From the IMG/VR virus record IMGVR_UViG_3300043749_000038, positions 5,072 to 69,071 of that record: a DNA stretch of 64,000 nt; one strand, given 5' to 3'. Both the position numbers and the translations under genes were made by a program. Below are positions 8,921-41,716 of this stretch, one piece after another (position 1 is the stretch's first letter; every line of letters starts with the position of its first letter). The notes under the pieces were generated by a model. The model had not been told where the DNA came from, did not search any database, and saw only the letters and a program-made list of their open reading frames with translations. Source of the stretch: a virus.

Positions 8921-10174
8921 ATGACGATCGCAGTCGGCGTAGCCAAACTCCTATCCTACAAGAAACAAACCGGCCTGGGCGTCAAAGCTCCGTCCGGCGC
9001 AGCGGGCAGCGCGCGTTACCTGCGCCGCGTGTCCTCGAACCTGTCGCTGAAAAAAGCCACCTACAGCTCGACCGAACTGCGTCCGTCGCAGCAGGTCGCT
9101 GACTTCCGTCACGGCGTGCGATCGGCCGAAGGCACCATCAGCGGCGAGATCAGTGTGGGCACCTACCAGCAGTTCGAAGAGTCGCTGCTGCGCGGCCTGG
9201 CTGTCGTTGCTGTCTCCACCGGCGCACAAGCCACCATCGCTTCGGCAAGCACCACCGGCGCCAGCGGCACGATGACCCGCAGTGCTGGTTCGTTCCTGAC
9301 CGACGGCTTCAAGCTGGGCATGGTCGTACGCGCGACCGGCTGGACCGCTCCGGCAAACACCCTGAACGGCATCAACCTGTTCATCGTCGGCCTGAGCGCA
9401 ACCGTGATGACTTTCGTGCGCATGGACGGCGTGGTTGTCCCGACCAAAATCGCCGGCGACAACGTCACCATTTCCGAAGTCGGCAAACACATCTCGATCC
9501 CGCAGACCGGCCAGAACCGTGACTACTACACCTTCGAACACGACTATTCGGACGTGAAGCAGTCCGAGCAGTTCAGCGACTGTGTGGTCACGCAGATGGA
9601 CGTCAAGTTGCCTGGTTCGGGCATTGCCACCTGCGACTTCGCGTTCAAGGGCCTGGACATGCAGACGACCGACTACTCGGCCGCTGGTTCGTCGTACTTC
9701 CTGTCCCCCGCAGCCGCGTCGACCGGCGCCGTGCTGGCTTCCTCGAACGGCCTGCTGTACGTCAACGGAACGCCCGTTGCGCTGATTACCGGTCTGAACT
9801 TCTCGGTCAAGGGCAACCATACCACCATCGGCGGCGTCGTGGGCTCGAACGTCGACCCGGACATCTTCCCGGGCAGCATCACCGTGGACGGTCAAGTGAC
9901 CGTGCTGTTCCAGGATGCCACCCTGCGCGACATGTTCGTCAACGAGACCGAGTTCTCGATGTACGCCGTGTTCACCTCGAACAACACCGGCACCGCGGAC
10001 TTCAAAGCTTACAGCTTCGCGCGCTGCAAGTACTCGACCGCCGACAAGGACGACGGCAACAAGAGCCTGGTTCAAACGATGTCGTTCACCGCACTGGAAA
10101 ACAGCGCGAACGGCGGCACCGGCACCAACGCTCACGCGTCGACCATCGCAATTCAAGACAGCCAGTACCAGTAA
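8921..10174 (+). CDS. Major tail tube protein
   Basis: 417 aa, highly biased codons, LRRVSSNL and STELR motifs, position. Confidence 0.85.
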   Translation: MTIAVGVAKLLSYKKQTGLGVKAPSGAAGSARYLRRVSSNLSLKKATYSSTELRPSQQVADFRHGVRSAEGTISGEISVGTYQQFEESLLRGLAVVAVSTGAQATIASASTTGASGTMTRSAGSFLTDGFKLGMVVRATGWTAPANTLNGINLFIVGLSATVMTFVRMDGVVVPTKIAGDNVTISEVGKHISIPQTGQNRDYYTFEHDYSDVKQSEQFSDCVVTQMDVKLPGSGIATCDFAFKGLDMQTTDYSAAGSSYFLSPAAASTGAVLASSNGLLYVNGTPVALITGLNFSVKGNHTTIGGVVGSNVDPDIFPGSITVDGQVTVLFQDATLRDMFVNETEFSMYAVFTSNNTGTADFKAYSFARCKYSTADKDDGNKSLVQTMSFTALENSANGGTGTNAHASTIAIQDSQYQ

Positions 10175-10276: not shown

Positions 10277-10723
10277 ATGAACCAAGCACAAAAAATCCTG
10301 TTCGATCTGGGCGCCCTCAAAACTCTGCCGGGCGCGACCTTCAACTGCGATGTCCTGTTCGACGCAGAAGGCAAACCGTACGCCGGTTTCACCATCGTCG
10401 GCAAAAACAGCCCCGAGTACCGCAGCGGCCAACGTGAGCTGCGCATCGACGGTATGCAGCGCGCGGCCAACCGCTCGGAAGAAATCGACACCAAGACCGC
10501 CGAAGGCGCGCAAACCGTCGTCGACAGCATCGACGAACAGCAACTGCGCACCGCTTGCTCGGTTGTCACCGGCTGGTACGGCTTCGGCGCCGACGGCAAC
10601 GAAGTACCGTTCGACAAGTCGCAACTGCCGAACATCTTCCAGGTGATGCCTGACTGGCAAGCTCGCATCCTGGCCGCTCTCGAAAAGCAGGCAAATTTTA
10701 TGCCCGTCTCGTCGAACGGCTAA
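10277..10723 (+). CDS. Tail assembly chaperone (gpG-like)
   Basis: Between tube and tape measure; slippery site near 3' end. Confidence 0.8.
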   Translation: MNQAQKILFDLGALKTLPGATFNCDVLFDAEGKPYAGFTIVGKNSPEYRSGQRELRIDGMQRAANRSEEIDTKTAEGAQTVVDSIDEQQLRTACSVVTGWYGFGADGNEVPFDKSQLPNIFQVMPDWQARILAALEKQANFMPVSSNG

Positions 10724-11079
10724 TCGCTTACGCGAAGTGTCGGTTTTACTGGAGCGGGCGGACTAAGGACGGTGCTACGGTTTCACAGCACGTCGAAAAA
10801 GCGAAAGCTAGTCCGCTCGCTTCACTTATCGTAACTGATAAGACATTCGACGAGGCGCCGGAAGAAGTAAGATGCCCACATGAACTTGCATATGTGTGGG
10901 CATGGTTCAGAGAGCTAGACGCAAGACGTACCAACAGCGGTATGGGATTCAATCCAATTACGCACGAAGCAATTAGTGCATGGTCGGACGGTTTCGAAAT
11001 AGGCATTACACCATTTGAACGGCAATGCATTGTTGAGATTGACGATGCTTACAGGGATTACTGCAACACAAAGGAATAG
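10693..11079 (+). CDS. -1 frameshift extension of tail chaperone (gpGT-like)
   Basis: A-AAT-TTT heptamer at 10693-10699 in the correct phase; -1 frame is open to 11079 (YARLVERLIAYAK...VWAWFRELDARR...). Confidence 0.8.
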   Translation, partial: KFYARLVERLIAYAKCRFYWSGRTKDGATVSQHVEKAKASPLASLIVTDKTFDEAPEEVRCPHELAYVWAWFRELDARRTNSGMGFNPITHEAISAWSDGFEIGITPFERQCIVEIDDAYRDYCNTKE

Positions 11080-26903: not shown

Positions 26904-27130
26904 GGGAGTTTATTCCACGGTTTAATAGACGCATCGCTGTACTTTGCATCGCGGAGCGGGCTGTAGCTAAGGTCGATAATGTGCACATCCCCCGCTATGG
27001 TGTGTACATAGCGTTCCTCTCTGTGCGTGACAGGAATAAGCAACGGCATCCCACCGGGAATATTGGAGGGGCGAATCTCCTTAACTTGGCGCTTCTGCTT
27101 CTCGCCCTTAATGATCACTTCCATTAACAT
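26900..27130 (-). CDS. Hypothetical protein
   Basis: Coupled between dpdA-like and clamp genes. Confidence 0.45.
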   Translation of the reverse strand: MLMEVIIKGEKQKRQVKEIRPSNIPGGMPLLIPVTHREERYVHTIAGDVHIIDLSYSPLRDAKYSDASIKPWNKLP

Positions 27131-28059
27131 TAGAAAAGCTCCTGTACTTTTAACACGTCAAAGTCGTTCTGTTTCTTTTCAAGACGTTTGTTAATCTGCT
27201 GGTTCACTTCCATGTAGCCCAAGATGTTATACACAGCGCGGCTCTCGTAAATTGTACCAAGCCGCTGTACATCAAAGCCCTTACTATTTAGCATCCGTTC
27301 CACTGCTGCGCGCTCGATGTCGGTTAGTGTGGTTATATGCCTGCCCGCGTCGTGCTTGGCTGGAGAGTTTTCAGACACGGCAAGCGGCCCGTGCTCGCTC
27401 GTGTAAATGGAACCAAACGCTGCTGCTTGAATCCATGACGACGAGTCAACGCTGTACCATGGATACCGTTCCATTAACCACACAGCAGTCATACCGAACG
27501 CATGGACCTTGAGCTTGGGCCTGCCGGAACCATCAAGCATAAGCGGCCAGATGCGGTCAAGCCATACGCGCTGACTTTCCGCGGTACGCCGAACGAGGCC
27601 TCCAATGGTGATGTAATCGTAATTTGCAACGTACCATTCGAGGTAACGGACATCTTCGCCGTAGTGGAAGCAGGGGAGGGGTTTTGCATTTTGTGACTCC
27701 ATGTACAGTTGGTTCCTGTAAGTTTGAAGTGGATCTCCAATGCCGTCAAGTACAGATGCCATAACGATTCCATCTTCCTTACGCAGGATATCCTCGTTGC
27801 GCTTGATGTAATCGCAGTAAGCGTTAATGTCAATACTTACACCGAGGGAGTGCGCGGAGAACGCACCTGAGTCCAGGAACACTTGCGCACCCTGCTCCCG
27901 CATGGTATCGACAAAGCGCTGTCCGTGGACGTAGTGATATGATTCGAGTATATGAGGAATAGTAGGCGTGATTGCAGCCTCCACCTCGTTTAACTTTTCA
28001 TAACGTTGTTGACCTTTCATGTATGAGTTGGTATAAACAGCCGCTAAGAATAGATTCAC
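27130..28059 (-). CDS. dpdA: TGT-fold DNA guanine transglycosylase (DpdA-like)
   Basis: FLDSGAFS, VLDGIGD, FHYGE, IGGL, VHAFG, SVDSSSW TGT-family motifs; beside preQ0 genes and replication genes. Confidence 0.8.
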   Translation of the reverse strand: MNLFLAAVYTNSYMKGQQRYEKLNEVEAAITPTIPHILESYHYVHGQRFVDTMREQGAQVFLDSGAFSAHSLGVSIDINAYCDYIKRNEDILRKEDGIVMASVLDGIGDPLQTYRNQLYMESQNAKPLPCFHYGEDVRYLEWYVANYDYITIGGLVRRTAESQRVWLDRIWPLMLDGSGRPKLKVHAFGMTAVWLMERYPWYSVDSSSWIQAAAFGSIYTSEHGPLAVSENSPAKHDAGRHITTLTDIERAAVERMLNSKGFDVQRLGTIYESRAVYNILGYMEVNQQINKRLEKKQNDFDVLKVQELF

Positions 28060-28278
28060 AGGTTGTACTCCTCGCGTGCTGTGTTCGAAAGTCTTGTTAG
28101 GACCTCCTTTTCTTCTTTGGTGAACTCAATCTGGAATCCACCGCTAACGTCGATGTAGTCAATACTTTCCGAGTCAATAATGCGAGCAATGTATTTTTTG
28201 AACAGAGCTTCGTAGTCCACAGTAACAACCCTTGCGGTAAATGCGTACGCCGCTTGCGGTAGCGCACGGCAAAGCGTT

Positions 28279-28311
28279 AAAAATGGGGAGGTGCACACTG
28301 TACCCTCCCCA
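28279..28311 (-). terminator. Rho-independent terminator between que genes and dpdA
   Basis: Minus strand TGGGGAGG-loop-CCTCCCCA-TTTTT. Confidence 0.65.
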
Positions 28312-28335
28312 CTAGCTGCGCAGCGTGCCGCGCGT

Positions 28336-28434
28336 TTAAATGCTTGGTGTCACAGCCAGTGCGCACACGAACAGCAGGCCGAGAAAGATGTAAGCTACAA
28401 CACGTTCGAACTTCTTTTGATTACGGTTGCGCAT
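28336..28434 (-). CDS. Putative 32-aa membrane peptide (not in ORF track)
   Basis: MRNRNQKKFERVVAYIFLGLLFVCALAVTPSI; AGGT RBS; fills gap before terminator. Confidence 0.45.
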   Translation of the reverse strand: MRNRNQKKFERVVAYIFLGLLFVCALAVTPSI

Positions 28435-28442
28435 GACGTTAC

Positions 28443-28688
28443 CTATGTTAAGTCAACAAGCAAGGCTACAACAGGGTGGCCTTCCCCACGGACCCAAAGC
28501 TGAACGCTCTTACCTTCATTCAAAGCTTTGAGCTCCTCCGGCGTTGGTTCCCATGCAGAGACCATAAATTTACCTTGGTCGGTCTCAACCTCCTTGACAG
28601 GAAGACCGGCGCAGCTTGAACCGTCGTCTTTCCAGTCAGATGGTGCGCCAAAGACCTTGGTAGCGTTTTCGATCCGGCGGACTAGCAT
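28443..28688 (-). CDS. Hypothetical protein
   Basis: GAPSDW...C.GLP...SAWEPTPEELKAL...HPVV, recognisable small phage family. Confidence 0.6.
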   Translation of the reverse strand: MLVRRIENATKVFGAPSDWKDDGSSCAGLPVKEVETDQGKFMVSAWEPTPEELKALNEGKSVQLWVRGEGHPVVALLVDLT

Positions 28689-28698
28689 AGCGCCGCCC

Positions 28699-29289
28699 CT
28701 ACGCTTGGTTCAAGAAATCCGCGCGGCGATCCGGGTCGGTGTACAGATAACCGCGCAGCGCCTTGGTGATGGTATGATGTCCTTGCTGACGCAGGCCGCG
28801 GTTTTCCATGCAGAAGTGTCGAGCGCGGATGACCACACCTACCGCCTTCGGATTCAGGTGCTCGACCAGTGTGTCGGCAATCTGTGTGGTCAAACGTTCC
28901 TGCACTTGCAGCCGGCGCGCGAACGCGTCAGCCAGGCGGGACAGCTTGGACAGGCCGACGATCTTACCGTTCGGATGGTACGCGATGGTCGCGGTGCCGA
29001 AGATGGGCTCCAGGTGATGCTCGCACTGGCTGTAGATCGGGATGTCTTTGACGATCACAAGGTCGTTGTAACCCTCGGCGCCGTCTTCGAACACCTTCAG
29101 CAGCGACGGGATGTCAACACCGTAACCGGAGGTCTTTTCGGCCCAGGCCTTAACGACTCGGTGGGGGGTTTCCAGAAGGCCGGGGCGAGGCTCCTCGCCA
29201 ATAACAAGCGAGATCAGTTGCCGGATCACGTTGCGCTTTTGTTGCTGGATTTCTTCGTTGGTGCCTTGCGGCAGGAGTTCGTATTGCAT
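28699..29289 (-). CDS. folE: GTP cyclohydrolase I
   Basis: GLLETPHRV, SQCEHH, GLSKLSR, RLQVQERLT, HFCMENRG. Confidence 0.95.
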   Translation of the reverse strand: MQYELLPQGTNEEIQQQKRNVIRQLISLVIGEEPRPGLLETPHRVVKAWAEKTSGYGVDIPSLLKVFEDGAEGYNDLVIVKDIPIYSQCEHHLEPIFGTATIAYHPNGKIVGLSKLSRLADAFARRLQVQERLTTQIADTLVEHLNPKAVGVVIRARHFCMENRGLRQQGHHTITKALRGYLYTDPDRRADFLNQA

Positions 29290-29290
29290 G

Positions 29291-29767
29291 TTATTTTCCA
29301 AAAAAGGTTGCAGAGTTGGCACCATGCTCGGAGCATTTAACCGAGGCGACGCGTACGCGATGGAAACGGCCGCCGGACGCATGCTTTCCGTTCAGCTCCC
29401 GCACGAGCAGAGCGACTTCGTTGTAGACTTCTTCTGCGAACGATTCGCAGCCTACGCGGGGTACAACCCTGAGGTCGATGATCTTCTGGTCGTGCAACAC
29501 GCGGAAGGCGTCCAGTGCTGGATCGTCCTTGGCAATGACGGTCTTGTGGTCGAACATCTCGCCAAGCCTGGAGCGCAGCGATTTAAGACCGCCGAAATCG
29601 ATAAGCCAGTTGCGGCCGTCCAGCGTGTTGGATTCGAAGACGATCTCGAATGCCAAGCTGTAACCGTGCAGCATCGAGCAGTGCGAGTGCGTCGCTTTGT
29701 GCTGCCGGAAACAGCAGGACAATCCGAGGTTGTGGTCATAGACCTTTGTTACTTGGTAGCTGGACAC
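29291..29767 (-). CDS. queD: 6-carboxy-tetrahydropterin synthase
   Basis: HCSMLHGY, IDFGGLK, FDH, terminal E-H-G-A-N-S-A. Confidence 0.9.
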   Translation of the reverse strand: MSSYQVTKVYDHNLGLSCCFRQHKATHSHCSMLHGYSLAFEIVFESNTLDGRNWLIDFGGLKSLRSRLGEMFDHKTVIAKDDPALDAFRVLHDQKIIDLRVVPRVGCESFAEEVYNEVALLVRELNGKHASGGRFHRVRVASVKCSEHGANSATFFGK

Positions 29768-29934
29768 AGGTGCACCATCTTTCGCAGTTGTTCGACTTGG
29801 TCTTTCAGATCCGTATTTTCCTGAAGCAGCTTAGCTTCACGCGCAAGAACTTCGTCGAGTTTCTTACACTTTTCACCGTACTGCTGTTCCAGATTGCGGA
29901 GGGCTTTGTGGGCCGGGATGGGTTTAGCAGCCAT
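29749..29934 (-). CDS. Small coiled-coil protein
   Basis: Coupled between queC and queD. Confidence 0.5.
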   Translation of the reverse strand: MAAKPIPAHKALRNLEQQYGEKCKKLDEVLAREAKLLQENTDLKDQVEQLRKMVHLCPATK

Positions 29935-30797
29935 TATTCGTCACCGCTTGGTTGCTGGTAGGCTGGATTTTCAGCCATGGCGCGATCGTGCTCGGCCGCC
30001 GTGTCCAGCGAGCGTTGATCGCCGCAGCACAGATCCATACAGACGTTGGCGTAGTTCGGGGTTTCCGGCAGCTTCATCAGCCCTTCACGTGCTGCACGCA
30101 CGACCAGCGGGTCCGGCACGCCGGCCTCTTCGAAGCCCTTGGCGCGCAGCAGGGTAGCATGGTCCTTGCCGACCGGCGGATAGGCGCCGTCGTACGATGT
30201 GTGGGAATATGCCAGAGCTTCCATGCATCCCGGGATCGCCTGCGCCAGACGCACACTGTCCGCTTTGGTAAGGTACATGAGCGGGGTAAGGATGCGCAGT
30301 GGTCGCAGCGTACCCGGCTCGCCGGTGAACGTACCGTAGTTGATCGCGTCTTGCAGAGCACTGATGAACGTTGCACGGCAGTCCGGATAGCCGCCGCTGT
30401 CTTCCTGGCACACACCGGTGATCAGCACGTTGCAGCCCAGGACGTAAGCGCGGTTTGCAGCCAGCGTCAGGAACAGTTGGTTGCGCATCGGAACGAAGGT
30501 CTTTTCCAGACCGCCAGGCAGGGACTGATGGTCCGCGTACTGCTCGAGGACTTCGTCCGGATTGGTCAGCGGCGACGTGCCGGCCAGGATAGGACCGACG
30601 GTTGTCAGGAACTGCTTGCTCGGGTGCACGCCGACCATGCGAGCGATGATACCTGCGGACTCGATCTCGGTCGCATGTTTCTGACCGTAATCGAAGGTGA
30701 TAGTGTGGACGTCGTAACCCTGCTGCTTGGCCCAGAACAGGCAAGTGGTGGAGTCTTGTCCGCCGGACAAGACCACTAGAGCTTTTTGCTTGAGCAT
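29934..30797 (-). CDS. queC: 7-cyano-7-deazaguanine (preQ0) synthase; possible longer start at 30911
   Basis: VLSGGQDSTT, FDYGQKH, TFVPMRN, GYPDCR, TPLM motifs. Confidence 0.92.
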   Translation of the reverse strand: MLKQKALVVLSGGQDSTTCLFWAKQQGYDVHTITFDYGQKHATEIESAGIIARMVGVHPSKQFLTTVGPILAGTSPLTNPDEVLEQYADHQSLPGGLEKTFVPMRNQLFLTLAANRAYVLGCNVLITGVCQEDSGGYPDCRATFISALQDAINYGTFTGEPGTLRPLRILTPLMYLTKADSVRLAQAIPGCMEALAYSHTSYDGAYPPVGKDHATLLRAKGFEEAGVPDPLVVRAAREGLMKLPETPNYANVCMDLCCGDQRSLDTAAEHDRAMAENPAYQQPSGDE

Positions 30798-30912
30798 ATC
30801 TTTAACCTTCCTTTTCTCGTAAAATTGGAAATCGCAGCAATCGCATTTCTTTGTAGCAGAATAAGCGAACGCGTAGCATTTAGGGCACACCTTTAGCGGT
30901 GCGTCACCCATG

Positions 30913-31128
30913 TTATTCCCCATTTTTGAAATAGTCGACTTGAACTTCTTTACCCATGCGAACAATGCAGCCCAGCATGAGAAGGATCCAGAACGCAGCA
31001 ACGGCGCCCCACACCCAGCCGGAGGGCTGAAACTTGTCCAGCAGCAGGTAGAAGACGATGCCCCAGCCGATCGGCAGACGGGTAGGCAGGTTACTTGGCG
31101 CGAGGACGCGCGGATTCTTTTTGGACAT
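30913..31128 (-). CDS. Small membrane protein
   Basis: Two hydrophobic segments, within que cluster. Confidence 0.55.
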   Translation of the reverse strand: MSKKNPRVLAPSNLPTRLPIGWGIVFYLLLDKFQPSGWVWGAVAAFWILLMLGCIVRMGKEVQVDYFKNGE

Positions 31129-31131
31129 TTG

Positions 31132-31317
31132 TTAGACCTTTGCTTTCTGGATTGCGGTGAAGATTGCTTCGCGAAGTTGAGATTCGATCAGCGGTTCATC
31201 CTTACGAACAGGATTCTGCACCATCGATTGCAAAGCAGCTAATTCAGCAGCGTCGCAAGCAATGGTAAAGTGATAAACCGTTTTCATGGATACGTTAACG
31301 TGTGCAATTGCCATCAC
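31132..31317 (-). CDS. Hypothetical protein
   Basis: Overlaps queE stop. Confidence 0.45.
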   Translation of the reverse strand: MMAIAHVNVSMKTVYHFTIACDAAELAALQSMVQNPVRKDEPLIESQLREAIFTAIQKAKV

Positions 31318-32033
31318 TCCACCCCGAGGTATTTGTGGGTCTGAAGCTGGAGGGTGTAACCGAAGCGCAAGCAGCTATCGACAACCGCTTTAATGTTCTT
31401 AGCGTTAGTTGCTTCGTCCTTGGAGTCCATCGGCTGGAGATAGACGGGCTTGCCACCATGTCGAGCAACCTGCGGCGCCGCAGTGTGGTTAAGCGCAAGG
31501 ATAGGAAGGCCGTCGTTCGGATTCACGCTGTCGTGAGACAGGACGTACTTGAAGCACTTTGCGCGCGAACGAATCCATTCTTGCACCTTGCCGGCCTTGG
31601 GGCTGCAAACGATGTGGATTTGTTCCCACACTGGATGGTCTTGCGTGCCGGGCCCGGGAGCAAGCGTGCCGTTCGTTTCGATTTGCACGGTGTATTCGTG
31701 CTTTACCAGCAGTGCGCACAGTAAAAGCAAGCTTTGACGGAAGGGTTCACCGCCGGTAATGACGATGAGCGGTTTACGATGGGACCGTGTGGACTGCGTC
31801 TTGATTGAGTCCAAGATGGATTCCACATTCATCACAAGACGACCCTTCGTGTACTCCGTGTCGCAGGACGGGCATTGCAAGTTGCAACCCGCAAGGCGCA
31901 CGAATACAGCAGGGCGTCCGGTGAACGGACCCTCACCCTGAATTGTATAGAAGATGGAATGGACGTCGAGGACGGAACCGTCCGACTTGACCGACTTTTC
32001 AATCGGTTGGGTGTTGATTGGGATAACTTGCAT
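31314..32033 (-). CDS. queE: 7-carboxy-7-deazaguanine synthase (radical SAM)
   Basis: FYTIQGEG, RLAGCNLQCPSCDT, TGGEP, IETNG, SPK, LQTHK. Confidence 0.95.
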   Translation of the reverse strand: MQVIPINTQPIEKSVKSDGSVLDVHSIFYTIQGEGPFTGRPAVFVRLAGCNLQCPSCDTEYTKGRLVMNVESILDSIKTQSTRSHRKPLIVITGGEPFRQSLLLLCALLVKHEYTVQIETNGTLAPGPGTQDHPVWEQIHIVCSPKAGKVQEWIRSRAKCFKYVLSHDSVNPNDGLPILALNHTAAPQVARHGGKPVYLQPMDSKDEATNAKNIKAVVDSCLRFGYTLQLQTHKYLGVE

Positions 32034-32074
32034 GCTACCTCACGAAGATCAGCCTTAGCTGAGTACGGGTAATT

Positions 32075-32162
32075 TGGCGGAAAGTGTAGGATTCGAACCT
32101 ACGGAGCCTTTCGACTCGTCTGGTTAGCAACCAGATGCATTAAACCACTCTGCCAACTTTCC
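32075..32162 (-). tRNA. tRNA-Ser(GCT)
   Basis: GGAAAGT acceptor, TCTGG-TTGCTAA-CCAGA anticodon arm, long variable arm, GTTCGAATC, G discriminator and encoded CCA. Confidence 0.92.
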
Positions 32163-32278
32163 TTTAGGTGAGGACGGCCCGACTGATACGGGCTGTAAGA
32201 GACCGCTTGCGGCGCAATACAGTCGAGCTGTGCGGCGCAGGCGGGTTAGCGTCCTCTAGAGGGTGCTACCAGGCCGAA

Positions 32279-33891: not shown

Positions 33892-35628
33892 TTAAAACGG
33901 AATATCGTCGTCTTGTGGCGAAATCGGTGCTTCGAATTCGTCCATGAAGCACTCGTCCATCACTTGTGGGAAAGGATGCGCATTTGCCCACACACGCACA
34001 TGCGTTGGGACCGGGAAGTCCGGGATCATTTTAACCGCTTCCTCTGCGCTATTTGGCATTGGAAGATTGGTGCGCTTCTTCCACCACTTCTCAGCCTTGT
34101 CGCGAAGGTGCGGGCTGTGATTGATTAACAAGAAGTGCATCACCTTCTGACTAAAGCTGTGGTAGTATGTGACGCGTACACTATCGGGTTTGCCCGCCTT
34201 CTTGTTGACTGAACAAAGAACCTGCTCAACTCGGTAAACTTTAACCTCCGGCGCTTCGTTCCTGATAACTTCCTGCGTGCTAGCTTGTTTCTGAATCTTC
34301 ACTTGGAAGATGAATTCAGCCCCGCATCCCATCGGGGTCTTGTATGGCTCACCGCCGCAGAACCGCGCCGAGATGTGGTTATACGCATCGCAGTGATCGC
34401 AAATTTTAATCGGCGCTTCGCCTTTGGACGCACCTTTCTTTTTCGGGATAATTGGGTCGTTAATCGGGCCGCAACGCTTGATGTTCCCAGCGAAGTCCAT
34501 CACCAAGCAGTTCTGCTTTGGACTTGCCGCAATTGAAGCTAATCGGCCTTGAATAGTGGTAAGGTCGTAACCTTGTTTGACAAACAGAGGACGTGTACCG
34601 CGCCCGAGCATTTGAACCCAAAGCTTGGAGGACATCGTAGGGCGCAACATGACAATAAGATCAAGACCCGGATGGTTCACACCTGTAGTCAAGATACCCA
34701 TATTGATAATTGCGGTGTACTCGTAGTTCTTCCAGGCGCGGATGTTATCATCACGCTCCCCGTCGGACATCTTGCTATGCACAACCCGGCACGAAACGCC
34801 CAGATGTGTAAGCATCTCTCGAATTTTTTCGCAATGCTCTAGACCAGAAGCAAAGACAATCCAGCTCCGACGATCGTGCGCGTAGTCAAGTGTTTCCAGA
34901 AGCGCAGCGTAAGTGATCTTATCTTTGTTGACAGCGAGTTGAAGCTCTTTCTCGTTGAAGTCTCCGCCAACTAGCTTAACCCCGTCGACGTCGAGGATGG
35001 TCTTTGTGGGCTTGGAAACAGGTGGGACCAAATAACCTTCTTTGATGAAACGGTTGAACGACACCATGTCGGTGAGGTCGATCGCCATGTGCGTAAAGAT
35101 ACCATCACCTTGGGTTAAATGACCCTGCCCCTCCCGCCAAGGAGTGGCGGTAAACCCCAGCACACGCAGGTAAGGATTGCGCTCCTTTAGCGCCGTAATA
35201 AGGCGCATGTACATCGAGGTTTCGCGATTGCTAATGAGGTGACACTCATCAACGATAAGGATGTCAACTTTGCCAAACTTTGCTACGTTCTTAATGATTG
35301 AAGCGATACCAGCAAAGATAATCTGCTGACTGGTATCCTTACGCTTGAGACCTGCGCTATAGACGCCGGCGGGGGCGGTTGGCCAGATATTCAATAACTC
35401 CAGATAGTTTTGCTCAACTAGTTCTTTGACGTGTGTTGCGTTAATAAAACGCTGGTTCGGCGCAGCGCGCAAGGCATTGTACATGAAGTAAGCGATCGAA
35501 AACGCCTTGCCCGTACCGGTCGGCATACCCACGATAGGATGCGTATTCGGGTCGGGGTTGGTGGCGAACCAGCGCCAAATGGCGCCGTCGACCGCTAGCT
35601 GATAGTCACGCGGGATCAGTGTGGTCAT
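33892..35628 (-). CDS. Superfamily 2 DNA helicase (RadD/UvsW-like)
   Basis: PRDYQ, PTGTGK, DECH, TATP, QMLGRGTR, C-terminal Zn ribbon. Confidence 0.9.
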   Translation of the reverse strand: MTTLIPRDYQLAVDGAIWRWFATNPDPNTHPIVGMPTGTGKAFSIAYFMYNALRAAPNQRFINATHVKELVEQNYLELLNIWPTAPAGVYSAGLKRKDTSQQIIFAGIASIIKNVAKFGKVDILIVDECHLISNRETSMYMRLITALKERNPYLRVLGFTATPWREGQGHLTQGDGIFTHMAIDLTDMVSFNRFIKEGYLVPPVSKPTKTILDVDGVKLVGGDFNEKELQLAVNKDKITYAALLETLDYAHDRRSWIVFASGLEHCEKIREMLTHLGVSCRVVHSKMSDGERDDNIRAWKNYEYTAIINMGILTTGVNHPGLDLIVMLRPTMSSKLWVQMLGRGTRPLFVKQGYDLTTIQGRLASIAASPKQNCLVMDFAGNIKRCGPINDPIIPKKKGASKGEAPIKICDHCDAYNHISARFCGGEPYKTPMGCGAEFIFQVKIQKQASTQEVIRNEAPEVKVYRVEQVLCSVNKKAGKPDSVRVTYYHSFSQKVMHFLLINHSPHLRDKAEKWWKKRTNLPMPNSAEEAVKMIPDFPVPTHVRVWANAHPFPQVMDECFMDEFEAPISPQDDDIPF

Positions 35629-36524
35629 ACCGCATTAAACTGGACGTAATGCTCGCACGCTGCAAGCTGTTGTTCTTTGGACAGGACTTCGCCGGTTTGA
35701 CCACACACCCAGCTACCATGTTCAGCGTCAATTACAACGCTATGACATGTGCGGCAATTGCGTTCTGGTTCAGCGTTACCATGGCAGAGCAGCTTATTCT
35801 CGCAGAACTTGCACTCGTACCAGCTAGGTGATTCGTTAATACGCTTCGGTGCTTCGCGCAGCATGATGATATTACGGGCGCGCTGCACCATCTGTTCGCC
35901 CATGGTTGGGTCCAGATGGATGATTTCCAGATGCAGGGAATCGTCATCCTTGCAAACGGCGCCGTACATGGCGATACCAAGCCCCATTCCGCGCAAGTAA
36001 ACTTGCATCTGCGCGTAGTGCTCAGGCTTTGCTTCGCGGACACCCTTTGCAACAAGCTTGTCGAAAGACTTCTTGCTGTGCGTCTTAAATTCTAAGAGGC
36101 CGTAGGTGTTAGCAGGAAAATCAGGGATGCCATAGCCAACCCCGTCACCGCTCCCACCAAACAGGCCACCAAAATAAGAGACACGGAACTGATTACCTTT
36201 AGCGTCCTGTTGAAGGACTTGAACGCCAATCGTAAGTAATAGTGCGATAAACCTTGCTTCTTCAAGATGACCCCTGTTAAAAAGACGAAGAATGCGGCCG
36301 CTGAATTTAGGCTTTCGGGCCCAACGGAATCCATACCAGATGTCCCGCGCGCAGGATTTACCAATCAGCGATGCGCCCAAGTGGTTGCGAAAACCTTCGT
36401 CCGCGCCACGGTATGCGTCACCAATATGAGGAATTACTCGTTGGAGGTTTTGACGGTAAGCACCGCCTTGGTCTGCTTCCAGCGCTGCGTCAATAGCGGC
36501 TAGAGTCTTAGTTGCAAGCTGCAT
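35625..36524 (-). CDS. Cas4-like PD-(D/E)xK exonuclease
   Basis: LGASLIG..C, DG...LEFKT, HYAQMQVY, CKFC....C. Confidence 0.8.
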   Translation of the reverse strand: MQLATKTLAAIDAALEADQGGAYRQNLQRVIPHIGDAYRGADEGFRNHLGASLIGKSCARDIWYGFRWARKPKFSGRILRLFNRGHLEEARFIALLLTIGVQVLQQDAKGNQFRVSYFGGLFGGSGDGVGYGIPDFPANTYGLLEFKTHSKKSFDKLVAKGVREAKPEHYAQMQVYLRGMGLGIAMYGAVCKDDDSLHLEIIHLDPTMGEQMVQRARNIIMLREAPKRINESPSWYECKFCENKLLCHGNAEPERNCRTCHSVVIDAEHGSWVCGQTGEVLSKEQQLAACEHYVQFNAV

Positions 36525-36537
36525 GTAGGCTCCTGTG

Positions 36538-36630
36538 ATTTATAGACGAACTTTAGAGGGACTCGAACCCTAGCACTTGCCGATTGCCTCGGCCGTTCTG
36601 CCAATTAAACTATAAAGTTCGTCTATAAAT
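36538..36630 (-). ncRNA. tRNA-like element with extended acceptor stem and short anticodon loop
   Basis: 18-bp perfect terminal inverted repeat enclosing D arm (GTTT-AATTGGCA-GAAC), GCCGA-GGCAA-TCGGC arm and AGGG-TTCGAGT-CCCT T arm; no CCA. Confidence 0.7.
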
Positions 36631-36657
36631 GCCCTGTTTCCAGGGCAAGGGCCTACA

Positions 36658-37557
36658 TTACTGCGGGGCGCCCCACGGCACCGGAGCCGCTTGCGATGCT
36701 GCATAAGCGGCTTGCTGTTCCGGGCTCATTACCGGCGCGACTTGCTGCGGAGCTGCTGCCTGAGGAGCGCCCCACGGCTGTTGCGGAGCTGCCGCCCAGT
36801 CCGGCTGGCCTTGAACTGCACCCGGCTGGAACTGTTGCGGTGCCTGCTGTTGAGGAGCCGTCTGGAACTGCTGTGCCGGGGCCTGGAACTGCGGAGCTTG
36901 TTGCTGCTGTTGGGGCGCTTGGAACTGCAGCTGCATCTGCTGGGGTTGCATGCTCGGCTGTTGCGGCGCCATCGGCTGCTGAGCGTTTGCCTGCCATTGT
37001 TGTGCCGGCGCCATCGGTTGCTGCGGCGGGATCACGTTTGCTGCCGGCGGGATGGTGCCGGGTGCAGTGCCAGCAGGCTTGGCGGCGGCCTGGGTGGCGG
37101 AAGCGGTCTTCGCTGCACCAGCGATAGCGGCTTGGTCGTTGAGGTTGCTGTAGGCGCTCGGCTCGTTCTTTTCTTCGTATTTGACGACGCCCGGATTCTG
37201 GTCGTCCATGACGGCTGGGGTCAGCTTCAGGCGGGTGAAGAACGGGATGTTCTTGAGCTGGTCGGTGTCCGACATTTCCAGCACATTGACAGCGTGGCAC
37301 AGGGCGCTCAGCTGCTTGCGGCCGATTTCGACAGCTTTTTCGTTCGGGTTCTGGACGTTGAAGTTGTTGAAGAACATTGCGCCCTTGTAGGTGCCTTCGG
37401 CGACCTGGAACGAAACAGCGATCATCATGCCTTCGCCGGAGCCGGTGGGCTTCAGCTCGGTCTTCGTGACCATCGTTTTGTACCAGCCGGCCGGGATTGC
37501 GCCCTTGCGTCCCTGATCCGGTTCGACATCTCGTGCGTTAAACTGGAATTGTGCCAT
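36658..37557 (-). CDS. ssDNA-binding protein (DUF669-like) with Gln/Pro-rich tail
   Basis: IPAGWY, NPNEKAVEIG...L..LCHAV; C-terminal PW. Confidence 0.7.
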   Translation of the reverse strand: MAQFQFNARDVEPDQGRKGAIPAGWYKTMVTKTELKPTGSGEGMMIAVSFQVAEGTYKGAMFFNNFNVQNPNEKAVEIGRKQLSALCHAVNVLEMSDTDQLKNIPFFTRLKLTPAVMDDQNPGVVKYEEKNEPSAYSNLNDQAAIAGAAKTASATQAAAKPAGTAPGTIPPAANVIPPQQPMAPAQQWQANAQQPMAPQQPSMQPQQMQLQFQAPQQQQQAPQFQAPAQQFQTAPQQQAPQQFQPGAVQGQPDWAAAPQQPWGAPQAAAPQQVAPVMSPEQQAAYAASQAAPVPWGAPQ

Positions 37558-37558
37558 T

Positions 37559-37882
37559 TCAGTTGCTTCCTTGATTTTGTGCAGTCTGTTGAGCGCCAGA
37601 CTGCTGAGCGTTGGTGTGGGCATCCAGGTCGAAGAAGGGCTTCACGCCCAACTTTTCGCGGATGTAATCGACCGGCAGTGCGGTCGCGTCGTGCAAGCGC
37701 AAGATCATTTCTGCGCTTACCGGAACCCGGTTATGACGGATCTTGCTAACCGTCGGCGGCTGCATGCCAATGATGGTCAGCAGTTCGGTGCGGTTACGCG
37801 CTTGGATTTTTTCCTGCGCTTTGTCCAGCAGCTGATCGATTGCGCTGTTCGGTGGAACCAGCGGACGGCCCATGGTAATCAT
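37559..37882 (-). CDS. XRE-type helix-turn-helix protein
   Basis: NRTELLTIIGMQPPTVSKIRHNRVPVS; ATGA coupling at 37879-37882. Confidence 0.65.
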   Translation of the reverse strand: MITMGRPLVPPNSAIDQLLDKAQEKIQARNRTELLTIIGMQPPTVSKIRHNRVPVSAEMILRLHDATALPVDYIREKLGVKPFFDLDAHTNAQQSGAQQTAQNQGSN

Positions 37883-38040
37883 TGCGACCCCCAGGCGGCA
37901 AGCGCTGTGCGCACAGCTTGTGCGATCCGCGTCATCTGCATTCCGTGGAACTGGAGCTGCAAGAAGTTTTTGCGACGTTCCATGTTGCGCGTGAAGGTCG
38001 AGTAGGCCAGGGCTTTTGCGTGTTGTGCTTGTTTGTTCAT
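37879..38040 (-). CDS. Hypothetical protein
   Basis: ATGA overlaps at both ends (MNKQAQ...). Confidence 0.45.
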   Translation of the reverse strand: MNKQAQHAKALAYSTFTRNMERRKNFLQLQFHGMQMTRIAQAVRTALAAWGSQ

Positions 38041-38882
38041 TGCGGTGCATCCCTGTTGTAGTAGTCGCGGCCGCTGCACTGGTAGATTGCGTGGGCCAAT
38101 TGGTTCCAGCCATTGTCGCGCGGCATGGAAATTGGTTCAACCATGTTGAAGCGGTTGCCCGCAACGTAACCGGGTTGACGGCTGACGCCAAGCACGCGGC
38201 CTGCGTTTTGGCTCACCGCTTGGTTCATGTTCTTACCTTCGCTGACGAAAATGGGTTCGTGCAAGAAGCCGACGAGGTCCGCCCATTGGGTCAGCATTTC
38301 GCGCTTGCCATAGGTCTTGTCGTTCTTCGGCGAATGCAGAAGCAGATCCCACGAGTGGTACGTGCCCGCGGTCGGGTCTTTGACTTCGCCGGTGAAGACA
38401 TGGCAGGTCAGAATGACGTTGACGCCGCATTGGACGGAAAGCTGGTCGCACTTGCTCAGGAAGTTCTGGAACAGTTCGTTTGCGAACTGGTAGCCCTTGC
38501 CGTAGCCGCCCAGCGCCGAGTCCATGGTAACGGTCTTTTTGTTGCCGGGGGAATAGTTCGGATCGCGACGCAGGACTTCCGTGTGGATCATCTTTTCCAG
38601 CGCAGTAACGCTGTCGATAACCAGCGACATGTAAGGGAACTGACCGGCTTGCACGTACTGGATGATCTCGTCCAGCAGTTGCATCACATGCTGGAACTCG
38701 GTCAGCTGCGGGGTCATGTTGACGCTCACGCCGCTATAACCAACCTCCAGTGGCACCAACAGCGCACGCGGAGCGTTCGTCGTCAGCGTGGTTTTGCCGA
38801 CTTTTTCAACACCAGCGATGACAGCGCGCAGACCGGGACGGACGCCTTGGCTAGTGTGGGTAACTGCTGCAAGAATGGACAT
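38037..38882 (-). CDS. AAA/RecA-like ATPase (Sak4-like recombinase)
   Basis: GVEKVGKT, LVIDS, GYGKGY; adjacent to SSB and exonuclease. Confidence 0.75.
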   Translation of the reverse strand: MSILAAVTHTSQGVRPGLRAVIAGVEKVGKTTLTTNAPRALLVPLEVGYSGVSVNMTPQLTEFQHVMQLLDEIIQYVQAGQFPYMSLVIDSVTALEKMIHTEVLRRDPNYSPGNKKTVTMDSALGGYGKGYQFANELFQNFLSKCDQLSVQCGVNVILTCHVFTGEVKDPTAGTYHSWDLLLHSPKNDKTYGKREMLTQWADLVGFLHEPIFVSEGKNMNQAVSQNAGRVLGVSRQPGYVAGNRFNMVEPISMPRDNGWNQLAHAIYQCSGRDYYNRDAPQ

Positions 38883-38987: not shown

Positions 38988-39941
38988 TCACATGTCTTCA
39001 GCACTGCGCAAGCTAACCCATTGCGTAAAGCGCGGGGCATCTTTGATGCCTTTCGGGAACATCTTGAACTTAGACGGTTTGCCCACAATAAGCGACGGGT
39101 CCGCTAGGAACGCACGTTTGAGGTCCTCGGTCATATGACCCGGCGACGAGTTGAAGATTTGGTCTTTTTTGACAAGGAGTTTACTTTTATCGTAGACATC
39201 GTAGACGTCCACAAGCGATCGCGCAACAATAGTTCCGACCAAACCATTGGGCACTTTATTCTCCTGATGCGAGGAACGGAATTGGCGCCCAAGCTCATTG
39301 ATCTGCGCAGCGTTGAGGTTAGTTTCGCCTTCAATAACCTCTTCGACGATCGCTTCAAAGTCAACGAAATCCTTGCGGCGCAGACAGCCACCATGTCGTG
39401 GCGAGGATTTCCCTTCCTTGTGCGTTGCTTTCGGATCATAATAGCAGCTCCCTTCGTAGCCGGCGGTCATGTATTCCTCGTGGATCGCGTCGTACTCCTC
39501 GAGTGTGTGGGCAACCTTGTAGCGGAGCACGCGCAAACGCTCACCAAGCCCCGCTTCGGTAAGCTCTCGTAATTTTGCGCACAGCAGCTGATACCGGAAC
39601 TCGTACGGCTTGTCGACGGTGTCGCGTGTGACGTAATCGAACAGGTGCCACAGGGTGTACGGTTCGCCGGCGATGGTGCCCACAGCAGAGCTAGTGAGCC
39701 TGCACAGGTCCGGATGGCATTCGTGTTGAGCCGCGAGTTCACCGTCCAGACCGATGTACTGCGACCGGCTGAAGTAGGATGTGGTGTAACGGTTCTTGTG
39801 CTGCTTGAGCGTACGCGCCAACAGCGTGCCTTGCGGATTGTAACCCCGTACGCCATCTACTTTTGGGAATACCCAAATTGGGAAACGGATCTTTTCGCGC
39901 TCGTAGTTTTCCGCGCGCATGACTTTGATTTCACCGGCCAT
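38988..39941 (-). CDS. ATP-dependent DNA ligase
   Basis: KVDGVR, LDGEL, FDY, GYEG, terminal PRF motifs. Confidence 0.9.
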   Translation of the reverse strand: MAGEIKVMRAENYEREKIRFPIWVFPKVDGVRGYNPQGTLLARTLKQHKNRYTTSYFSRSQYIGLDGELAAQHECHPDLCRLTSSAVGTIAGEPYTLWHLFDYVTRDTVDKPYEFRYQLLCAKLRELTEAGLGERLRVLRYKVAHTLEEYDAIHEEYMTAGYEGSCYYDPKATHKEGKSSPRHGGCLRRKDFVDFEAIVEEVIEGETNLNAAQINELGRQFRSSHQENKVPNGLVGTIVARSLVDVYDVYDKSKLLVKKDQIFNSSPGHMTEDLKRAFLADPSLIVGKPSKFKMFPKGIKDAPRFTQWVSLRSAEDM

Positions 39942-40525
39942 TATTGGTTCTCCAGTTCGATATCGCAATTCTCGCAAACGACGTGCGAACAACCAACCCC
40001 ACCCACTTCGACGAACTTGTGTTGCTTGCACGGGATGTTGAGATAGTTCCGCCACTTAACCTTTACACCGTTGACCAGAAAGCCCCACGTCCCACGATAG
40101 CGGTAGGTGATGAATAAGGTCCAGACACCACCGCTGCTCACCTGCGTGATTTTGTGGTAGTCGCCGAAGTTAATCGAAGCGGTGTCGCCAGCTTTCCGAC
40201 GCGTGGAAGCGTAGCCCAGTGGTTCTGGACGTCGCTCCTCGTACCAGCCACGCAAAATGATCGTACGCGCGTCCCAAGGATGGTCGTGCATGTGCTCGTC
40301 GCGATCTTCGCGCAGTATGTGGTGAAGACGCACAGATGGGAAGAAGCGGCACCAGCCTTTCTTTTGGTCCGGTGCGCTTTTCGGGTATGGGTTGAACAGC
40401 CAGTAGCGGTTCATATAACCCTCGAGATGGCTGTACGGCGCCTTCATCGCACGTTTGATCAGCCAGCCCGTTACAGCAGGGCGTGCAAGCACCTTGGCTA
40501 GAAGCTTCCAGAACAGGCTCTTCAT
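39941..40525 (-). CDS. Conserved phage protein, cupin-like His motifs
   Basis: RLHHILREDRDEHMHDHPW, YHKI, WTLF. Confidence 0.6.
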   Translation of the reverse strand: MKSLFWKLLAKVLARPAVTGWLIKRAMKAPYSHLEGYMNRYWLFNPYPKSAPDQKKGWCRFFPSVRLHHILREDRDEHMHDHPWDARTIILRGWYEERRPEPLGYASTRRKAGDTASINFGDYHKITQVSSGGVWTLFITYRYRGTWGFLVNGVKVKWRNYLNIPCKQHKFVEVGGVGCSHVVCENCDIELENQ

Positions 40526-40860
40526 TTGCGCCTCCCTGCTTTACGAGCAACACGCATGCGAACTGCCAACGTCCGCTTGGCGTAGTAGACCTGTTTTTCA
40601 GCATCGTACACGCCGTCCGGGTCCGCACCCTTTTTAACCAGGCCGAGCGTGCGCTGTGCAGCACTGCGCCACAACGCTTTGAACTCGCAACCCTCGGAGA
40701 AGGTCATGCCGAGCGCTTCGATGATGTCTTCGCACTCTGCGATGTACGGAGGACGGTCGGGACGTTTCGGTTCCTCAACGACAACCGTGTAGTAGTCGAC
40801 GTCGTTGCCGGTGAATTCTTCTTTTGGCTCAATGCCGAGTGGAATTAATGGACCAGGCAT
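40522..40860 (-). CDS. DUF3310-like protein (putative nucleotide kinase family)
   Basis: ECEDII...F..G..FKALWR...D.EK..YY pattern. Confidence 0.55.
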   Translation of the reverse strand: MPGPLIPLGIEPKEEFTGNDVDYYTVVVEEPKRPDRPPYIAECEDIIEALGMTFSEGCEFKALWRSAAQRTLGLVKKGADPDGVYDAEKQVYYAKRTLAVRMRVARKAGRRK

Positions 40861-40861
40861 A

Positions 40862-41716
40862 TCACACCGCCACTTTCGCTTTGATTGCAGGATGGGGATT
40901 GTAGTCCTGAATTTCGAAGTGCTCGATCTTATAATCGAACAGGCTGGGGGCCTTGTGCAGGAAGATGGTGGGATTGCCGCGTTCTTCACGCGACAGTTGA
41001 AGCTCGACCTGTTCCATGTGGTTGGAGTACAGGTGGCAGTCACCGCCGGTCCAGATGAACTCGCCTGGTTGCAGCCCGGTCTGCTGCGCGAACATGTGGG
41101 TAAGCAGAGCATAGGACGCGATGTTGAACGGGACGCCGAGGAAGATGTCGGCGCTGCGCTGGTAGAGCTGGCAGGACAGCTTGCCTTCAGCCACATAGAA
41201 CTGGAACAGTGCGTGGCACGGTGGCAGATTCATATTCGGGATGTCCGCAACATTCCAGGCTGAGACGATAATGCGACGGCTGTCCGGGTTATTCTTGATG
41301 GTGTGCAGCGCTTCCGATATTTGGTCGATGGACTTACGAACGACGTATTCCATATAATTCCCGTCACTGTCTTCGTCGTCCACGACAGTAGTGTACGGCC
41401 AACTGCGCCACTGCGCACCGTAGATCGGTCCCAGCTCACCCGTAACAGGGTCAGCCCATTCATTCCAGATGCGAACGCCGTTGTCTTGTAGGTATTTGAC
41501 GTTCGTATCGCCGGCGAGGAACCAGATGAGCTCGTGGATGACGGACGGCATGTGGACCGACTTCGTAGTGATCAGCGGGAAGCCCTGCTGCAAGTCGAAG
41601 CGCATTTGATAGCCGAACACGGAGCGCGTGCCGGTGCCGGTGCGGTCGGTCTTGACCACACCATTGTCGCGGACGTGCCGCATGAAGTCGTGATATTGGG
41701 CGGTTGCGGTTTTCAT
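40862..41716 (-). CDS. thyA: Thymidylate synthase
   Basis: [37 protein letters not shown]. Confidence 0.97.

Follow-up and report, generated by a model that had tools for sequence, protein, structure and literature searches.

The window analysed here is the whole stretch of 64,000 nucleotides comprising bases 5072–69071 of a 69,071-bp IMG/VR virus record with direct terminal repeats. A search for sequencing runs that contain this sequence gave a single soil-metagenome DNA run and no RNA run; in the DNA run, it was present as a single 68,972-nt contig and variants were not found. The genome carries replication genes for a DNA polymerase, a processivity factor and a primase, and a recombination block on the minus strand with a Sak4-like ATPase, a DUF669 single-strand DNA-binding protein (SSB), a Cas4-domain exonuclease and a helicase. 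The SSB protein matched Pfam DUF669 (2.5e-11), phrog_13350 of unknown function (3.4e-49) and phrog_6015, annotated as single strand DNA binding protein (5e-34). The tRNA-like element under study lies within the 133-nt spacer that separates the co-oriented SSB and exonuclease genes, and the Pfam and PHROG matches on both sides agree with an earlier sequence-only reading, which had placed a tRNA mimic between SSB and Cas4-like genes. A consensus scan across 35500–38500 gave no promoter-like sites. The element probably lies within an operon transcript, co-transcription of the SSB and exonuclease genes being itself presumed. Coordinates of all features are collected in Table 1.

Searches with tblastn found matches to the exonuclease in 416 phage records, every one below 60% identity, the nearest named phages being Queuovirinae-type siphoviruses of Variovorax, Acinetobacter, Pseudomonas and Xanthomonas. 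At the DNA level, no similarity to GenBank phages was detected in a near search with 3.5 kb or in a distant search with 171 nt. The 7-deazaguanine cluster of the genome suggests modified DNA, as in Queuovirinae. Elsewhere in the window, a 224-aa ORF at 40522–41196 (minus strand), near an ATP-dependent ligase-like gene at 38988–40055, matched several PHROGs of unknown function with its C-terminal 90 residues, as well as, weakly, a PHROG annotated as 3'-phosphatase/5'-polynucleotide kinase (4e-18), and had no match in a Pfam search. A long, imperfect inverted repeat at 10607–10857, with 35-nt arms that are 77% complementary and spaced by 83 nt, was found immediately upstream of a 2108-aa ORF, together with a related 15-nt repeat at 10607–10621.

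Table 1. Genes and RNA features at and around the SSB–exonuclease spacer (positions of the window).
Feature	Position	Strand	Description
SSB gene (DUF669 type)	36658..37623	-	Upstream of the element; stop codon TAA at 36660-36658
Cas4-domain (RecB-like) exonuclease gene	35625..36524	-	Downstream of the element; phrog_1990, 3.8e-103
7-deazaguanine cluster	27130-32033	-	TGT/DpdA-like 27130-28059, GTP cyclohydrolase 28699-29382, QueC 29934-31001, QueE-like radical SAM 31314-32033
P1 5' strand	36648..36658	-	Last A of the SSB stop codon and the nucleotides after it; predicted partner is the exonuclease SD/AUG
P2 hairpin	36630..36647	-	GC-rich hairpin TGCCCTGGAAACAGGGCA, then UUUAUAG; candidate weak terminator-like or 3'-protective hairpin
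P3 5' arm (18 nt)	36613..36630	-	11-nt flank and 7-nt acceptor 5' strand
P3 3' arm (18 nt)	36538..36555	-	Acceptor 3' strand, discriminator and 10 trailer nucleotides
P1 3' strand	36523..36534	-	SD AGGAG (36534-36530) through A and U of the start (ATG 36524-36522)
tRNA-derived core	36548..36619	-	Rfam RF00005 match and alignment; ARAGORN drawing
Acceptor strands	36619-36613 / 36555-36549	-	AACUUUA/UAAAGUU (Infernal alignment)
U8 A9	36612-36611	-	Infernal alignment
D arm	36610-36595	-	Stem GUUU/GAAC, loop AAUUGGCA (Infernal alignment)
Anticodon arm	36593-36579	-	GCCGA-GGCAA-UCGGC; 5-nt loop GGCAA at 36588-36584
Variable region	36578-36573	-	Infernal alignment
T arm	36572-36556	-	UAGGG-UUCGAGU-CCCUC, one U.C mismatch (Infernal alignment)
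Discriminator C	36548	-	Infernal register; followed by GUC, not CCA

The tRNA-derived core matched Rfam family RF00005 at 36619..36548 with 41.9 bits over a gathering threshold of 29 (E = 1.7e-05 in the window search), which answers the Infernal scoring proposed in the sequence-only reading, and ARAGORN called it as tRNA-Cys(gca) at 36547–36620. In the Infernal alignment, all of the nucleotides that are conserved in the elbow and tertiary contacts of tRNAs are present (U8, A14, G18 G19, A21, U54 U55 C56, A58 and G53-C61), and the acceptor/T helix is intact over 12 bp. The U8-A9, the GG of the D loop and the T loop UUCGAGU had been read correctly from the letters, all on the minus strand, and so had the anticodon arm with its short loop devoid of U33 and the missing CCA.

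The anticodon loop has two columns deleted with respect to RF00005 and is not a 7-nt loop with U33. ARAGORN reaches a 7-nt loop, A-G-GCA-A-U, only by opening an A-U pair, with G at position 33, and its register also requires that the acceptor have 8 bp, that nucleotide 26 be missing and that a G.A pair form within the anticodon stem. The GCA triplet stands at 34–36 in this register alone, the central three loop bases being GGC in the Infernal register. The discriminator is C at 36548 by Infernal or G at 36547 by ARAGORN, and in neither case U73, which is the main identity element for CysRS. CCA is not encoded, and the element is flanked by 11 leader–trailer pairs. Since the anticodon loop is 2 nt short (or carries G33), the discriminator is not U and CCA is not encoded, codon reading by this tRNA-derived element is very unlikely.

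To judge by its sequence, the body of the element is that of a generic phage tRNA, because its D-arm and T-arm/acceptor runs recur exactly in ordinary phage tRNAs. The D-arm 18-mer was found exactly in 29 IMG/VR stretches, 21 of which are ARAGORN tRNAs for Thr, Gln, Trp, His and other types, and the 19-mer of T arm and 3' acceptor in six phage tRNAs (Thr, Arg, Leu). A tRNA-Arg(ACG) at L203 has runs of 17 and 21 nt in common with the element. The 37-mer of the anticodon/T region had 0 exact matches in viral_contigs, and the anticodon arm yields no safe isotype. Four further IMG/VR phages (L184, L175, L189 and L190) carry tRNA-like genes with the same D arm and shortened or odd anticodon arms; ARAGORN made no call in L184 and reported tRNA-??? 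with a 2-nt anticodon in the other three. A small GAAA-type hairpin lies directly upstream of the tRNA-like gene in L184.

ARAGORN found the same two tRNA genes whether the window or the whole genome was scanned. The second and last is a canonical tRNA-Ser(GCU) at 32075–32162 (minus strand; 61.7 bits), with CCA encoded and free flanks. This gene is located inside a predicted 6-bp outer stem CCUCAC...GUGAGG (32034–32200, minus strand). The QueE-like gene starting at 32033 has its ribosome site in the 3' strand of that stem, so that twice in this genome a tRNA sits inside a stem covering the start of the next gene. A lineage-wide habit of clamping tRNAs was considered and rejected, the tRNA-Ser of the window and a tRNA-Leu of the relative L006 having no acceptor extension.

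The acceptor helix was also claimed to extend to a perfect 18 bp, and RNAfold gave that same helix, here named P3, without interruption (AUUUAUAGACGAACUUUA/UAAAGUUCGUCUAUAAAU; −38.1 kcal/mol, z = −4.99), with 0 of 200 shuffles folding as stably. The arms in this phage form Watson–Crick pairs only. P3 is the longest near-perfect inverted repeat within 200 nt in the window (repeat I3: 21 nt, 95%), the other perfectly complementary inverted repeats listed being of 12 nt. As a background, 202 distinct ARAGORN tRNAs were collected from the loci examined, 181 of them evaluable for pairing of the flanks beyond the acceptor. The extension was 0 in 79, 1 in 95, 2 in five, 4 in one and 10 in this element only, the value being 10 and not 11 since ARAGORN assigns one flank pair to the acceptor. 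The arithmetic chance of an 11-pair Watson–Crick extension is about 4^-11, and the observation is confirmed as real and far from chance. With 18 perfect pairs, P3 has the uninterrupted helix of some 1.5–2 turns expected of an RNase III substrate. A further 4–5 pairs of the T stem could stack on it, for about 22–23 pairs of helix. Integron attC and MITE-type ends were rejected on reading the sequence, flanking direct repeats and the core-site consensus being absent.

Directly upstream of P3, hairpin P2 follows a pattern with one match in the window against 0.04 expected, and it fails the terminator rule used, its U-run being too short. In viral_contigs the P2 pattern had 8 matches. Two of these are on the contigs of the related loci L004 and L006, and the other six are terminator-like hairpins in unrelated contexts. 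The same hairpin (TGCCCTAGAAATAGGGCA) was seen at 9237–9257 (minus strand) of an unrelated phage contig, L088, and is followed, within the next 60 nt or so, by a hairpin of around 17 bp with the U-run as its 5' arm; the layout of a U-run re-paired downstream thus recurs outside the SSB–exonuclease context.

An outer pairing, P1, is predicted between the end of the SSB gene and the exonuclease ribosome site. In a 207-nt context, its pair probabilities in the window are 0.75–1.0 (about 1.0 taken together). The equivalent pairing in L006 has a probability of about 1.0, and it is weak in L004 (0.2–0.75). In a crude control, occlusion of SD/AUG at the exonuclease ranked 13 among 47 candidate starts in the window. 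Translational coupling through P1 is plausible, not established, as judged from these modelled probabilities.

Related loci were collected around exonuclease homologues with the Cas4 protein as query, keeping 80 of 338 relatives from viral_contigs (top identity 62%) and 80 of 280 from metagenome_contigs (top identity 58%), for a set of 160; neither scan contained a relative closer than 62% exonuclease identity. At the SSB–exonuclease junction, ARAGORN detected a tRNA in 0 of these 160 loci (80 of 338 and 80 of 280). Elsewhere in the set, tRNAs were limited to a tRNA-Leu(UAA) gene that precedes the SSB gene in L006 and in its twin L093. This tRNA-Leu, at 1950–2034 in L006 and 1450–1534 in L093, is canonical with 58.3 bits and has no extension of the acceptor. 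From one lineage to another, tRNA genes have thus landed in different spacers of the recombination module.

The architecture of the spacer is common to the window, L004 (62%) and L006/L093 (57%), that is, two of the three closest lineages. From the 5' side, it consists of the TAA stop, some 6–10 nt, the hairpin TGCCCTnGAAAnAGGGCA, a U-run that is the 5' arm of P3, a variable tip, a 3' arm ending in CWAWAAA, TYACWGGAGC and the ATG. P3 is absent from the equally close L005/L092 (58%), where an ordinary terminator-like hairpin follows the SSB gene. When the 151 related loci with at least 150 nt upstream were scanned for stems of at least 14 pairs ending no more than 20 nt from the start codon, only L004, L006 and L093 were retained. 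The tRNA and the long stem are both absent from the four cultured relatives examined (VPv62, HD01, MiCath and NP1); in HD01, MiCath and NP1 the SSB gene is followed by a plain terminator-like hairpin, and in two of the relatives a small DksA-like gene precedes the exonuclease.

Counted from the base, P3 has 17(+1) pairs in the window, 17(+1) in L006 with one G.U and 13(+1) in L004 with one G.U. Across the three lineages, both sides changed with pairing kept at 9 of 17 positions (4, 6, 8, 9, 10, 11, 12, 16 and 17), and in P2 the seventh pair covaries as G:C, C:G or A:T. Some of the compensatory changes could reflect replacement of the whole hairpin instead of stepwise evolution. The G.U pairs of L006 and L004 exist on the sense strand only; since the complementary strand would have A.C mismatches in their place, they favour P3 as a sense-strand RNA structure, on the basis of very few such pairs.

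The tips closed by P3 differ, with 57 nt in the window, 48 nt in L006 and 86 nt in L004. Their similarity is at chance, local scores being matched by 1352, 1696 and 1954 of 2000 shuffles, and the spacers and tips of L004 and L006 have no RF00005 match even at E ≤ 10. A likeness between the window and L006 tips, TATAGT(Y)TTA, was discarded on the same chance-level local scores. Since the tips are unrelated and the tRNA is absent from the relatives, the conserved unit, as far as sequence comparison tells, is the stalk P3 with hairpin P2, and only this phage has the tRNA shape. Conservation in relatives, which had been proposed as a check, therefore holds for the long stem together with P2 and fails for the tRNA shape. 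The related argument that the intact elbow and the perfect long stem speak against simple decay is similarly divided: both are intact, but the stem also exists in relatives with no tRNA, and with its own reason to exist it weakens that argument.

The explanation we prefer, with a confidence a little under even, is that the element is a non-decoding tRNA-derived tip carried on a conserved cis-acting mRNA hairpin, in which P3 would serve as a processing or stability helix, likely cut by RNase III. The spacer of the SSB-to-exonuclease read-through mRNA would then have three parts, P2, P3 and, in two of the three lineages, the outer P1. P2 would act as a leaky terminator or as a 3'-end protector of SSB transcripts, and because its U-run UUUAUAG is too short for the terminator rule, read-through into the exonuclease and helicase genes would be expected. 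P3 would form in the read-through RNA and, with the T stem stacked on it, would be a plausible substrate for RNase III. Cutting by the host enzyme may separate a hairpin-protected SSB message from the exonuclease–helicase message, so that the SSB mRNA would end in a hairpin and the downstream message would gain a new 5' end. By means of P1, a ribosome terminating on the SSB gene could open the exonuclease start in a classical translational coupling. A point against RNase III is the length of P3, since a classical site has two turns and 18 bp falls short of that if the T stem does not stack. The conservation of P3 is seen in three independent lineages only.

In the preferred explanation, the tip of P3 would be free to vary, and the one found here would be a phage tRNA, captured or relict, in which the anticodon-loop geometry, U33, U73 and CCA have been lost and whose acceptor stem runs continuously into P3. 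An ancestral clamped tRNA with 11 + 7 pairs that decayed in other lineages fits with the 18 pairs of P3 in both the window and L006; a tRNA captured recently into the tip is just as possible. In an old neutral relic, the elbow would not be expected to be intact, and its combination with a broken anticodon loop would imply one of two histories, either a recent arrival in which decoding was lost not long ago, or selection acting on the tRNA shape in this lineage. As a more speculative proposal, which we consider improbable, the 11-pair clamp may be a one-turn ruler for RNase III, whose staggered cut would free a stable, non-decoding, trans-acting tRNA-shaped mimic and at the same time set the ratio of SSB to exonuclease–helicase; P3 would then be a modular launcher with varied cargo RNAs in the relatives. 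If so, the mimic would target host factors of defence or processing that recognise the elbow and acceptor of tRNAs.

Several other explanations account for part of these results. The element might be a neutral relic, that is, a dead phage tRNA decaying in an inverted repeat, with tip and stem both idle and a stem of DNA-level or historical origin. The absence of a tRNA from all the related loci, the defective anticodon loop, discriminator and CCA, and the tips of L004 and L006, which look unconstrained, are as expected for such a relic. It is nevertheless unlikely, given a helix of 13–18 pairs that is kept at about 60% protein identity with changes on both sides at over half of its positions, G.U pairs confined to the sense strand, an extension of very low chance probability and an elbow with every contact intact. 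A tRNA-type punctuation, in which RNase P and RNase Z/BN would cut the read-through mRNA at the tRNA-like borders, as the sequence-only reading had offered, would leave an SSB mRNA ending 11 nt past the protective P2 and a freed exonuclease mRNA. It would make use of the intact elbow and 12-bp acceptor/T helix, of P2 directly upstream as a possible 3' protector and of a position inside an operon with no promoter-like site in 35500–38500, and it has a precedent in kind in the MALAT1 mascRNA, according to the part of PMC8457004 consulted. The difficulty is that eleven perfect extra pairs would bury the −1/+1 site. For E. coli RNase P, the part of PMC9433436 consulted reports that two pairs between the leader and 3'RCCA already reduce kcat/Km and that extended acceptor pairing must be unwound. 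By analogy, direct cleavage of the element, with its 11 extra pairs, becomes less likely and is disfavoured, and a double-strand nuclease is more likely than RNase P as the processing enzyme, at least for the first step. Moreover, since relatives bear the stem and no tRNA-like tip, a conserved function cannot hinge on elbow recognition by RNase P, and the punctuation reading as a whole seems rather improbable.

The remaining alternatives assign a role to the tRNA shape itself or to the DNA. An excised tRNA-shaped RNA could accumulate in trans as a decoy or regulator for proteins that read the elbow or the acceptor, its targets being defence nucleases, modification enzymes or processing enzymes. 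The elbow preserved next to a defective anticodon loop would suit this role, and the tRNA-likes of L184, L175 and L189 also have odd or shortened anticodon arms; against it, the tRNA shape is conserved in no relative and, as anticodon nucleases read the anticodon loop, the part that they target is the one missing here, so that a mimic of this kind appears doubtful at best. A working tRNA-Cys(GCA), with a 7-nt loop closed by A32-U38 and maturing by removal of the clamp and addition of CCA, can call on the ARAGORN loop, on a score over the Rfam threshold and on the existence of phage tRNA genes with no CCA, as known for T4. This reading is very improbable in view of the G at 33 in place of the near-universal U33, the register it demands (acceptor of 8 bp, nucleotide 26 missing, a G.A pair among those of the anticodon stem), a discriminator that is G or C and not U73, fully paired flanks and a fully canonical sister tRNA-Ser in the same genome. 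Finally, the 18-bp inverted repeat could work at the DNA level, in a cruciform or in single strands, and serve for instance as a signal for replication or recombination; its Watson–Crick-only arms would permit a hairpin on either strand in this phage, and it lies between recombination genes. A DNA-level role is scarcely credible, as the G.U pairs of L006 and L004 become A.C mismatches on the opposite strand, a GC-skew turning point was not found at 36.5 kb and the repeat scan of the window showed no repeats or iterons around the element. A replication origin at the element was likewise rejected for lack of that turning point.

Annotation pipelines would enter the element as a phage tRNA-Cys and so feed arguments on codon usage or anti-defence functions; it should be left out of counts of decoding tRNAs. 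The locus also illustrates that what looks like a long "extended acceptor stem" can belong not to the tRNA but to an mRNA hairpin that already existed or was selected on its own, which calls for caution when reading "clamped" viral tRNAs. If the stalk is a processing site, this would be a compact tRNA-shaped punctuation of a bacterial-virus operon and a testable link between termination, RNA processing and SSB/exonuclease stoichiometry.

Compared with canonical phage tRNAs (RF00005), the element has the same cloverleaf, elbow nucleotides and identical D- and T-arm sequences, but it differs in its 5-nt anticodon loop (or G33), in having neither U73 nor CCA and in its 11 extra leader–trailer pairs, the sole extension above 4 among the 181 evaluable tRNAs. 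Precursors of the C4 RNA of P1/P7 and the CI RNA of P4 are processed by RNase P, and they resemble the element as phage transcripts in which tRNA-like features act as processing signals. Unlike the element, they have no full cloverleaf or long clamp, and their products are regulatory antisense RNAs.

For the stalk, intergenic RNase III sites are known in T7. Bacterial pre-rRNA leader–trailer helices are also cut by RNase III, as described in the portions of PMC11404451 and PMC10250234 consulted. In these systems, as here, a long helix is formed from the flanks of a module or between cistrons, and pairing is kept while the sequence changes. The pre-rRNA helices enclose rRNA and span several turns, whereas the helix described here, a candidate cleavage site, encloses a 57-nt tRNA-like tip and has 18 bp.

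Plant mitochondrial t-elements are tRNA-like folds in longer transcripts. They share with mascRNA and with the element a non-decoding tRNA-like fold within a longer transcript and a punctuation-like arrangement, as far as mascRNA is described in the part of PMC8457004 consulted. The same part reports that maturation of MALAT1 mascRNA by RNase P in human cells requires an extended acceptor stem, and that this stem adjoins an upstream structure protecting the 3' end, as P3 adjoins P2. The tRNA-like fold is conserved in mascRNA and t-elements, which belong to eukaryotes or organelles and are processed by RNase P and RNase Z; the relatives of the element, by contrast, have no such fold, and the clamp of the element is long and perfect. 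Rather than a family that includes this element, mascRNA is, by analogy, its closest functional counterpart.
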